Below are positions 1 through 30,559 of a DNA stretch of 30,559 nucleotides, piece after piece; position 1 is the first letter of the stretch, and the number at the start of each line of letters is the position of its first letter. A program made the translations under genes and the position numbers. This DNA comes from a virus (taxonomy: Duplodnaviria > Caudoviricetes): IMG/VR virus record IMGVR_UViG_3300016472_000106, positions 1-30,559 of that record. One strand, 5' to 3'. The notes beneath the pieces are model-generated. The model did no database searches. It was given only the letters and a program-made list of their open reading frames with translations, and had not been told where the DNA came from.

Positions 1-306
1 GAGTTTGCAGCACCCAAGGCCGCTGTAGAGCCTAAAACGGTCACAGTTGAGCCCGTTGTGGACGACCTACCGGCAGACTGGTTTGAGCCGAAGAAGCCAA
101 CGGAGGCCACCACAGAGCCTTCTAAGCGGATTCAGCCAACCTATTACGACGTGAGCAAATTACCAGAGGAGCAAAGGCCAAAGGCGAGAAACTACCTCAA
201 GGATTGCGAGGCGAAACACATATGCGACGACATCTGGAGAGCGCCGATCAAGCTGGAACGACTTACACAATGTATAACAGAGGACACAATCGATGCAAAA
301 AACTAA
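1..306 (+). CDS. 5'-truncated phage protein (C-terminal part), possibly the tail of a recombination/ssDNA-annealing protein
   Basis: Frame 1 is open from base 1 (EFAAPKAAVEPKTVTVEPVVDDLPADWFE...), so the ORF extends past the window edge. It has a Pro/Glu-rich linker. The function is inferred only from context near SSB-like genes. Confidence 0.55.
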   Translation, partial: EFAAPKAAVEPKTVTVEPVVDDLPADWFEPKKPTEATTEPSKRIQPTYYDVSKLPEEQRPKARNYLKDCEAKHICDDIWRAPIKLERLTQCITEDTIDAKN

Positions 307-29181: not shown

Positions 29182-29391
29182 CTATGCGATGTCGTTGAGC
29201 AATTCGGTGAACTCCTCTGTCGTCATACCGCTCGCTTGTAGCAACGCCAGTATCTCGCACATGTGATACATGCGCTTGCATCTCTCTCTATACCTTAGTG
29301 CTACCGGCGATATACCTATCAGCTCGCCAAATGCGACTCTCGTAAGTCCTAAGCGCTTCCGTATTGCTTGATACAAGTTACCCTTTGACAT
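29182..29391 (-). CDS. XRE/Cro-like HTH transcriptional regulator (69 aa)
   Basis: IRKRLGLTRVAFGELIGISPVALRYRE. Start placed at MSKGN because the track's extension overlaps the divergent promoter. Confidence 0.8.
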   Translation of the reverse strand: MSKGNLYQAIRKRLGLTRVAFGELIGISPVALRYRERCKRMYHMCEILALLQASGMTTEEFTELLNDIA

Positions 29392-29520
29392 AGGCAGGGT
29401 ATGATAGTGTCCGACCTTAATCCTAGCGTTAGGTCGCTTGTGTAGTTTGTTATGGTGTTGGCTGACATTAGGCCACATACCCAACCCTGCACTTTTTTCC
29501 CGATCCTTGTCAAATCCCTC

Positions 29521-29548
29521 TTGCGTATCCGACAGGAACCAGTATAGT
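29521..29548 (+). promoter_or_regulatory. Sigma70-like promoter of the early operon
   Basis: TTGCGT-16 nt-TATAGT. Predicted +1 near 29555 coincides with hairpin ATGAGTCG-AAT-CGGCTCAT. Confidence 0.55.
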
Positions 29549-29573
29549 GCGGTCATGAGTCGAATCGGCTCAT

Positions 29574-29593
29574 ACTAACTAACTAACTAACTA
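29574..29593 (+). repeat. (ACTA)5 tract before RBS
   Basis: Directly visible; recurs at 29844 and 30543. Confidence 0.9.
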
Positions 29594-29603
29594 GGGAAAA
29601 TAT

Positions 29604-29795
29604 ATGAAACTAAAAGACATTCAAGAGAAGTATGCGTTCATAGCTACGATCAATCGTAGCAACTCAAGTTATGGTAACTATGCTGTGAGACTCAAGATGC
29701 CCGTAAATCATATAGAATTCTTTTTTCGCTTACCTGAAATAGTCAAGTTTCTGGATAGTCACGTTAAAGATTTACGATCGGGCAATTGTTTATAG
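29604..29795 (+). CDS. Hypothetical early protein
   Basis: 63 aa; AGGGA SD after the ACTA tract; the stop abuts the ribozyme. Confidence 0.7.
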   Translation: MKLKDIQEKYAFIATINRSNSSYGNYAVRLKMPVNHIEFFFRLPEIVKFLDSHVKDLRSGNCL

Positions 29796-29845
29796 GTCGA
29801 AACTCCCTTTGGGGAGTCTAGGCGTTATGCGCCTACTGATGAGAC
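29796..29845 (+). ncRNA. Type II hammerhead self-cleaving ribozyme
   Basis: GTC-GAAA-CTCCC(TTTG)GGGAG-TC|-TAGGCG(TTATG)CGCCTA-CTGATGA-GAC. Complete catalytic core, three stems, GUC cleavage after 29818. Confidence 0.92.
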
Positions 29846-29859
29846 TAACTAACTAACTA
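29844..29859 (+). repeat. (ACTA)4 tract before RBS
   Basis: Begins within stem II of the hammerhead; followed by GCGAGG and ATG 29870. Confidence 0.9.
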
Positions 29860-29869
29860 GCGAGGCAAT

Positions 29870-30232
29870 ATGCATAAAAAAATTGAACAGATTGTACAAG
29901 AACATATCGAAGTACCTGAGGATATCAGACGACTAGCGAGCATGGCTACTATGGATTTATTGTGGGGTCCGATAGGACTCGACGATGATTGGGAGGTAGA
30001 AAACTATCAAGATTTCCAATCGGCCTGTAAACGGATTTCAGATTGGATCGACACATTGCCGGGGGAAATGTGGGTGGATGTCGATTGCGAGTTTGTTATG
30101 TATTCCGAGCCGACTTCCGAAGAAGTTGATGGAGAAGTTGTCGAGCCATGCTGGGAGTCAATTTACTATGTTCAAGGTCGAAGTGACGTAGTCGAGATGG
30201 TTTTGAATCACTATTTATGCGGGTATGTATAG
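29870..30232 (+). CDS. Highly acidic hypothetical early protein
   Basis: 120 aa, D/E- and W-rich; GAGG SD. Confidence 0.75.
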   Translation: MHKKIEQIVQEHIEVPEDIRRLASMATMDLLWGPIGLDDDWEVENYQDFQSACKRISDWIDTLPGEMWVDVDCEFVMYSEPTSEEVDGEVVEPCWESIYYVQGRSDVVEMVLNHYLCGYV

Positions 30233-30245
30233 ACTAAACCTACTC

Positions 30246-30306
30246 TACTGGATACAGTACAACACAGAGAGCCCTAACGGGCTCTCGATGCTGAACTGAA
30301 TCAGCA
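30246..30306 (+). other. Intergenic structured element (long imperfect hairpin)
   Basis: GAGAGCCC-TAAC-GGGCTCTC core, extendable to about 30248/30304. Confidence 0.6.
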
Positions 30307-30323
30307 ATAACTATGGAGATATT

Positions 30324-30539
30324 ATGGAGACAATTACACACAATCGCAAAACGATTACACCGAATGGCCAAGCATACCTCGATGCGAGCACCAAGTACGG
30401 CTATCACTATACCACACTAGCAACCGATGAGACGGGCAATGAATACCGATTAATCTGGTTAGTCACCGACGAAACTCTTATGTTTGAGGCCGATGAATGT
30501 TGCGATTGGTCACAACCTGACTACGTAGTCCCACAATAA
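30324..30539 (+). CDS. Acidic hypothetical early protein
   Basis: 71 aa; DETGNEYRLIW...CDWSQPD; GGAG SD. Confidence 0.75.
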   Translation: METITHNRKTITPNGQAYLDASTKYGYHYTTLATDETGNEYRLIWLVTDETLMFEADECCDWSQPDYVVPQ

Positions 30540-30542
30540 CCA

Positions 30543-30554
30543 ACTAACTAACTA
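30543..30554 (+). repeat. (ACTA)3 tract before the RBS (CGGAG) of a gene beyond the window
   Basis: Directly visible at the window end. Confidence 0.85.
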
Positions 30555-30559
30555 CGGAG

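Follow-up and report, generated by a model that had tools for sequence, protein, structure and literature searches.

The window, meaning the whole stretch of 30,559 nt that was analysed, is a single virus record and represents a nearly complete phage genome. Its minus strand carries the terminase, portal, major capsid and tail genes, and its plus strand carries the early arm, which begins near 29550, is interrupted by the contig end and continues from position 1 within a gene. The region 29555-30559 is the window's variable early-gene array. Since an identical copy of the second gene of this array is recorded on a 33,448-nt contig, about 2.9 kb of the genome may be missing.

Three small genes lie in the array on the plus strand, gene 1 (63 aa, 29604..29795), gene 2 (120 aa, 29870..30232) and gene 3 (71 aa, 30324..30539), and the start codon of a fourth falls outside the contig end. 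None of the three has a protein family match, which leaves the label of host-takeover genes, given to them in an earlier sequence-only reading of this DNA, unsupported. Homologues of gene 1 with 81-84% identity are present in two related loci (L055 and L056; L-numbers denote related loci and X-numbers metagenomic runs) behind different upstream elements, and a homologue of gene 2 (68%) lies in L024 without a hammerhead. Gene 2 has four database relatives, none of them named; as bait in viral contigs it retrieved no relatives, and structure and feature searches with it returned nothing usable. The look-alike clusters of gene 3 are all hypothetical phage or bacterial proteins. Of the 112 protein clusters formed by the early-arm genes that lie upstream of RecT, 76 are singletons (the 112 clusters comprise 220 genes, including a conserved block and 33 genes of uncertain position), and the small genes that are shared vary in order and upstream module among relatives.

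The gene entered at position 1 (1..306, plus strand) encodes the C-terminal part of a RecT/Bet single-strand-annealing recombinase, with 56% identity over 78 aa to a protein of L030 that matches Pfam RecT at E 6.5e-28 and TIGR01913 Bet above the cut-off. No integrase match was found among the window proteins scanned. The early arms of L036, L067 and L070 have a different protein family (cluster 15) where others have RecT, possibly an alternative recombinase, and two tRNA genes lie in the early arm of L024 (863-1449, minus strand). Divergent from the array is an HTH (XRE-like) regulator gene (29182..29556, minus strand; Pfam HTH_3/HTH_31 weak, below cut-off), the true start of which is probably internal to this reading frame; in most family loci the alignment with its relatives starts only at residue 25-59. 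This divergent gene is conserved and faces the cassette array in most relatives. Short TGT-NN-ACA palindromes lie over early promoter hexamers in L006, L016, L023, L030, L052, L056 and L058 and at 30247-30258 of the window, and could be operators to which the divergent HTH protein binds.

IMG/VR contains 244 relatives of the terminase, of which the analysis covered the best 80. The metagenomic runs in which at least half of the region's words occur are of freshwater origin; no RNA run was among those listed for this stretch, the one guessed to be RNA being probably DNA and covering little of the region. The best cultured match reaches 42%. Two short MAG contigs match the terminase, one of 2.5 kb in an Oligoflexales MAG (82%) and one of 6.7 kb in the MAG of an unnamed bacterium (79%); either may be misbinned, and they provide a weak host hint (L215, L214).

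Leader tracts and RNA elements of the array

Directly 5' of a Shine-Dalgarno (SD)-like purine block, ACTA units precede each of the four gene starts, numbering five, four, one and three from site 1 to site 4. The tracts lie on the plus strand at 29574-29593 (site 1), 29844-29859 (site 2) and 30542-30554 (site 4, spanning 30542..30559 together with the SD of the fourth gene), all three of them G-free, and the single unit before the SD of site 3 lies at 30308-30313 on the same strand. The 12-mer ACTA pattern has seven matches in the window against 0.13 expected, a number reached by none of 100 shuffles, so that the tracts noticed in the sequence-only reading are real and far beyond chance. That reading placed the tract nowhere else in the window, which is correct for runs of at least 12 nt (no other period-4 run of that length is present either), but a two-unit run also occurs at 1509, within the first codons of a small early gene. 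The small basic ORF of fewer than 60 aa that contains it (1506-1650) has similar counterparts in several relatives (cluster 14). Site 3 had likewise been read as a repeat, and ACTA does stand before its SD, but as a single unit only.

The first unit of the array begins with a putative sigma70-type early promoter (29521..29548, plus strand; -35 at 29521, -10 at 29543, 16-nt spacer). The predicted +1 near 29555 is the exact start of an 8-bp hairpin found by folding (29555..29573, plus strand), which would be the 5' terminus of the primary transcript and is followed immediately by the tract. The promoter was read from the letters and is below the scan threshold; promoter-like sites are present at two of the four units, both under this threshold, and the promoter/terminator scan of the window did not rise above chance and gave no plus-strand terminator in the array. 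Many of 52 non-redundant relatives have similar promoter-hairpin-leader units ahead of their cassette genes. In L024 an ACTA run, at about 3359 nt upstream of the terminase, is located inside a promoter spacer and not before an SD.

The hammerhead core is characterized by CUGANGA, GAAA and a UH triplet. All of these are present in a compact type II hammerhead ribozyme between genes 1 and 2 (29795..29846, plus strand), identified by descriptor search, fold and covariation, in which GUC at 29816-29818 is the triplet and the cut is predicted after C29818. Loops close off stems I and III and stem II is open, and the 3' strand of stem II extends into the first ACUA unit of site 2. In an alignment of 17 rows, which retains the mis-cut, non-hammerhead sequence of L115, 95.9% of the cells are paired and 11 of 16 pairs show compensatory change, with slid controls at 48% or below. 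Both the 5' hairpin at site 1 and the hammerhead at site 2 that had been proposed from the letters are borne out.

At the gathering threshold Rfam gave no family in the window, where SNORD29 was matched by chance at E 8.9, and no hammerhead family in 18 related loci, where two tRNAs only were found. Eight of the 18 loci (L045, L052, L094, L103, L107, L110, L142 and L171) hold descriptor-perfect hammerheads, and the gathering threshold missed every compact hammerhead in the loci tested. A pattern scan of 17 of the 64 parts of IMG/VR gave at least 120 hammerhead loci and an estimate of about 470 stretches holding one; by this one pattern, phages commonly carry a compact type II hammerhead whose loop I has 5 nt (L094-L213). 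Scan and family loci together comprise 142 distinct hammerheads, 140 of which have enough flank, and in 119 of these 140 an SD-like motif, an ATG and an open frame follow within 55 nt downstream. The spacers between hammerhead and SD are about 50% A and 11% G. An ACTA run of at least 12 nt is present in two of the 140 loci, and others have AACC, AAAC, CA or ATCAA repeats. A hammerhead followed by an A/C-rich leader and an SD is a common phage layout, in line with PMC3088659.

A pseudoknot between loop I and the 3' tail is described as frequent in type II hammerheads (PMC3088659), and the ACUA tail might be such a pairing partner of loop I from which role the tract has spread. The first unit overlaps stem II, and the potential pairing amounts to 3 bp in the window and to 4 bp in L001 and L045. 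Pairings of at least 4 bp are, however, possible in 25 of 140 hammerheads against 19.9 +/- 3.9 with permuted tails, and three of the four window tracts are without a hammerhead. The pseudoknot role of the tract was rejected on the basis of this lack of enrichment across 140 compact hammerheads, and as an origin of the tract it is scarcely credible. Loop I begins with U in 120 of 142 hammerheads, and A stands at the fifth position of the tail in 112 of them. In the window this A ends the first ACUA unit, suggesting that the repeat could naturally have been seeded by the ribozyme tail. A 5-bp match also exists between loop I of the hammerhead and the start of gene 2.

Between genes 2 and 3 lies a two-state hairpin, here termed element B (30251..30306, plus strand), which is identified by fold (z -6.6), covariation and model matches. 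The long hairpin that the sequence-only reading placed at site 3 is present and is larger than claimed, with a stem of about 20 bp (30251-30302) that has an invariant ACA/GAU internal loop, and with an alternative fold in which the 3' strand forms a 6-bp hairpin (30289-30306). Fifteen aligned family copies stand ahead of different genes, up to three per genome. In the alignment of these 15 sequences 91.9% of the cells are paired and 18 of 19 pairs show compensatory change, with none of 500 shuffles as high and slid controls at 46% or below, a margin that is partly built in as the structure was drawn from the same aligned sequences. The alternative hairpin of 5-7 bp with downstream sequence has a z below -1.5 in 14 of 18 distinct copies, and the long stem is the minimum-energy fold of the uncut RNA in six of the seven copies folded, L048 being a mixed form.

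The element B model has 21 matches in 72 family sources; 15 of these matches are training rows, and the three weakest have E values of 0.0002, 0.18 and 0.22. No match was obtained in 80 hammerhead loci of other phages or in G001, and one weak match was obtained in G002 (E 0.25). Outside the family the hairpin is present in none of 114 distinct pattern matches from 10 of 64 parts scanned, and Rfam does not match the element in the window or in the 18 related loci. Another long intergenic hairpin is repeated before ACTA tracts in L084 (1195-1250 and after 1683) and L086 (after 2871) and gave no match to the model of element B. Early genes of the window are also separated, at 593-666, by two strong hairpins in tandem (z -3.4), with an AACTA-GGAG motif buried in the second stem and similar letters before genes in L030 and L024.

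By analogy with T7, element B is likely an RNase III-type cut site. A cut in its loop is predicted to yield a 5'-capped downstream message, as in the first two modules. A second promoter-like site (30230..30258, plus strand; 17-nt spacer, 8/12 consensus matches) overlaps the stop of gene 2 and the 5' arm of element B, with the same layout in L024 and L021, and element B may therefore have its own transcription start.

At site 4 the tract begins 2 nt past the stop codon of gene 3 in a direct stop-to-leader junction, and the segment folds no better than shuffles (z 0.1), with no structured element in front. This type of bare junction is also found in L006, L013, L029 and L086. Structured RNA had been claimed at all four gene starts, which is true of sites 1-3 but not of site 4; the pairing of a standard leader with processing-type RNA elements is nevertheless supported.

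The ACUA leader across genes and phages

The association of the tract with early SDs is also seen across the family. AACTA stands directly before the SD in 30 of 187 genes of the variable region, against 4 of 90 among the conserved early genes and 1 of 218 among the late ones (mechanical gene calls), with Fisher p values of 4e-10 and 0.006 for the group contrasts, in which the rows, being family genes, are non-independent samples. Among 26 distinct family runs of at least 10 nt, 21 lie on the early strand before an SD. Runs of at least 12 nt precede only 6 of the 187 variable-region genes, and none of the 218 late genes has a run of at least 8 nt. The number of units varies from 1 to 6 across relatives, and at site 1 from 3 to 5 at contig level, in agreement with the copy-number variation that had been anticipated.

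The unit recurs in pure form before unrelated genes, and all 10 IMG/VR matches to three units followed by CGGAG belong to this phage family by contig or protein matches. Both observations would be expected if a specific RNA-binding protein, from phage or host, bound the tract and thereby regulated all cassette genes together; that the tract is an RNA-binding-protein site was one proposal of the sequence-only reading. Mixed ACCA/ACTA leaders and single-unit leaders are, however, found at the same position in the family, and leaders of the four-periodic ACHA type are found ahead of AGGAG in 67 distinct contexts across viruses, with the all-C form most frequent (11) and the all-T form absent. No evidence for a dedicated protein was found and no candidate was identified among the proteins of the window, with the reservation on genome completeness made above, and we regard this explanation as quite improbable. 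Three phage loci lacking a family protein match also carry 4-6 ACTA units and GAG with an ATG triplet 7-9 nt on. The ACUA tract is one lineage's version of a general A/C-rich leader.

It had also been claimed that each tract puts UAA stops in all three frames, and the tract could then be an insulator coupling termination to re-initiation at the next SD. Stops in three frames are found at sites 1 and 2 only, site 3 having them in one frame and site 4 in two. In L084 and L086 the tract does supply the stop of the upstream gene, and the same letters precede an RBS region in cloning primers, with no purpose given (PMC11915791). These two loci are, however, the only such cases among the 21 family tracts before early SDs, since the upstream gene has an earlier stop of its own at 13 and no upstream gene is called at 6. 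Furthermore, the longest tracts, of five and six units, stand before the opening gene of the array, and no gene is called upstream of them. Insulation as the main role of the tract was largely rejected on these grounds and is very improbable.

The predicted openness of the tracts is matched by 1% of random tracts at site 1, 5% at site 2 and 11% at site 3 (n=150), the last being not exceptional. The accessibility from SD to AUG in folding models does not gain from the tract, since random tracts are equally good in 24%, 85% and 83% of cases, and a separate set of folds gave a similar picture. A role of the ACUA tract in opening the SD is on this basis unsupported. An open tract that brings no gain in SD accessibility fits a standby site, which acts without a change of RBS structure (PMC5934652). 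The sequence features of standby sites and C/A-rich enhancers, that is a single-stranded, A/C-rich stretch of about 16-18 nt 5' of the SD, are found at sites 1 and 2, and site 3 is short.

Gene replacement and a proposed mechanism

Of 21 listed runs, eight were compared with the region, all as short, low-depth metagenomic contigs with one contig per junction, and swaps of genes that break at the tracts, as the sequence-only reading had suspected, were found in them. An X4 contig is identical to the window over 29393-29589 (197 nt) and then, after four units, has a different SD and gene. Contigs from X2 and X6 switch in the same way after three units at site 1, and those of X6 diverge also at 29855 and 30313. 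Site 2 has three units followed by other genes in strains and in L052 and L316-L318, and at site 3 the strains diverge immediately past the single ACTA unit. In the first set of runs all six loose ends behind a junction lie in or at a tract; one of the six, a match of 33 nt to the hammerhead only, probably stems from a different phage. Among the eight such ends listed for the second set, six lie in a tract or just past the SD, and the remaining two are an adapter and an end 11 nt into gene 1. One contig (X10) keeps the hammerhead with its tract, element B and tract 4, but carries replacements for gene 2 (284 nt in place of 371) and gene 3 (240 in place of 218). A further replacement is located not in the array but in the HTH region (29292-29486).

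As replacements must end near gene starts, what these data show is that an SD moves together with its gene, and a tract together with the module upstream of it. A module common in full to donor and recipient does not allow the crossover to be assigned to the tract as opposed to the promoter or hammerhead. The one case that locates the crossover in the tract itself is X7, in which gene 2 stands behind a different upstream element joined within the tract, the loose letters looking like the 3' part of element B. Back-joints of excised circles were not seen among the rows listed from the eight runs, in contigs that drop rare forms. The minimal exact pairing of Red-beta is reported to be 23-27 bp, and Rad52-like recombinases act on short and diverged homology (PMC3945230). 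The tracts of the window, with 6-20 nt, are below that minimum, and a tract with a few flanking bases is therefore borderline but plausible as a substrate.

The slots and processing modules may be real and the expanded tract nonetheless a neutral microsatellite, grown by slippage in a spacer that tolerates G-free sequence. A single unit would then suffice, and crossovers would occur in the longer shared modules. This is suggested by the range of one to six units across relatives with only one at site 3, by the AACC, AAAC, CA or ATCAA repeats that other phages carry at the same position, and by the absence of a gain in SD accessibility; the small number of family genes with long tracts also implies that the expansion may be neutral. 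A neutral origin is harder to reconcile with the near confinement of long runs to early SDs, with the four to six units before GAG and ATG in loci that lack a family protein match, and with the module switch of X7 inside the tract. It is an unlikely explanation that nevertheless deserves to be taken seriously.

The reading that we favour, and consider probable though far from settled, is that strains swap small genes between shared modules of the array, with the ACUA tract likely acting as a ribosome-landing leader and likely also as a crossover joint. Each module would give the downstream message a hairpin at its 5' end, at site 1 by the start of transcription, at site 2 by self-cleavage of the hammerhead, and at site 3 either by refolding after a cut that is likely of RNase III type or by a promoter of its own, and the gene at site 4 would simply be co-transcribed. 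The G-free single-stranded stretch behind the hairpin could then allow the 30S subunit to load beside the SD. The tract has probably grown by slippage from the single AACUA leader unit found throughout the family. Because all modules end in an ACUA unit, RecT/Bet would swap genes and modules in register, and an incoming gene would arrive already expressible.

One may speculate further that the array is an integrase-free cassette system in which the ACUA joint is both a ribosome-loading site and the preferred RecT crossover, the repeat length tunes expression and swap rate, and element B is a new two-state processing switch, possibly self-cleaving, that can replace the hammerhead. If true, any gene would be plug-compatible with any of several RNA-cutting modules. 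We regard this extended version as rather unlikely.

Relation to known cassette systems

The sequence-only reading held that the combination may be undescribed. Its general layout is largely described (PMC3088659, PMC2839356, PMC5934652), but neither the ACUA form of the leader nor element B was found in Rfam or in a search of largely open literature that took in PMC3088659 and PMC5737381. The parts of the array are thus individually familiar, and what is added is a covarying RNA motif, element B, that is absent from Rfam, together with a common compact type II hammerhead that Rfam misses. Equivalent slots are taken by a hammerhead, by a two-state hairpin, by a promoter hairpin or by a bare junction, all of them ending in an ACUA leader. 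This arrangement offers a natural test set for two ideas, first that such elements give each accessory gene a protected 5' end, and second that shared leaders channel recombination so that new genes arrive expressible. The reason for self-cleaving ribozymes between small phage genes is still open (PMC6765202).

The C/A-rich standby sites of Sterk et al. 2018 resemble the leaders of the window in being single-stranded A/C-rich repeats just 5' of the SD. Translation is increased by CA-repeat tails, most strongly at a length of 16-18 nt, which matches the 16-20-nt tracts at sites 1 and 2 (PMC5934652). The tails described there are, however, synthetic CA or AU dinucleotides placed in E. coli ahead of a sequestered RBS, and the window has ACUA. 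SAS/ESAS of cluster K mycobacteriophages are likewise repeated motifs right upstream of the starts of unrelated genes, sometimes with an upstream inverted repeat (PMC3203893). As described, SAS is a fixed, G-rich, SD-like 13-mer and ESAS stays with the same gene family across genomes, whereas the motif of the window is G-free, variable in length, placed upstream of the SD and changes its partner genes.

The closest parallel in the exchange of genes is found in the PeSL (promoter-early stem-loop) cassettes of the T4-type phages RB49 and phi1 (Arbiol et al. 2010, PMC2839356). In both systems repeated intergenic units begin at the stop codon of the upstream gene, take in a promoter and a stem-loop and end at the SD, flank variable ORFans and contain the crossovers, and in the window gene replacements do break within repeated stop-to-SD units that flank variable ORFans. 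PeSLs are described as one promoter-terminator family of about 100 bp, in contrast to the three unrelated module types and bare junctions of the window that share a short ACUA leader. Two of these modules resemble RNA cut sites and not terminators, and the phage is one of about 33 kb that encodes RecT. A strong sigma70 promoter and a terminator stem-loop with about 100 bp in common were not found in each unit, the units sharing only the ACTA tract, and the array was for this reason not classed as PeSL.

Clustered type II hammerheads that flank single prophage genes were reported by Perreault et al. 2011 and proposed to cut long transcripts into gene-length pieces (PMC3088659). The window hammerhead has the same type II topology and intact core and the same location between small variable genes. 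It differs from that description in standing as a single hammerhead in this part of the array, in the lack of support for a loop I pseudoknot, in not being detected by Rfam and in having a tail expanded into the ACUA tract. Element B, with an intergenic stem of about two helical turns and an internal loop, resembles in turn the RNase III signals between the early genes of T7, in which internal loops can restrict cleavage to one strand and the upstream product of a single cut retains a protective hairpin at its 3' end (PMC3867540, PMC1540722). Relative to these published signals, the loop of element B is a symmetric and invariant ACA/GAU, and its conserved alternative hairpin is predicted to cap the 5' end of the downstream message instead. 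Taken together, the array is a variation on the known cassette logic of phages, as represented by PeSLs, clustered hammerheads and the RNase III sites of T7.
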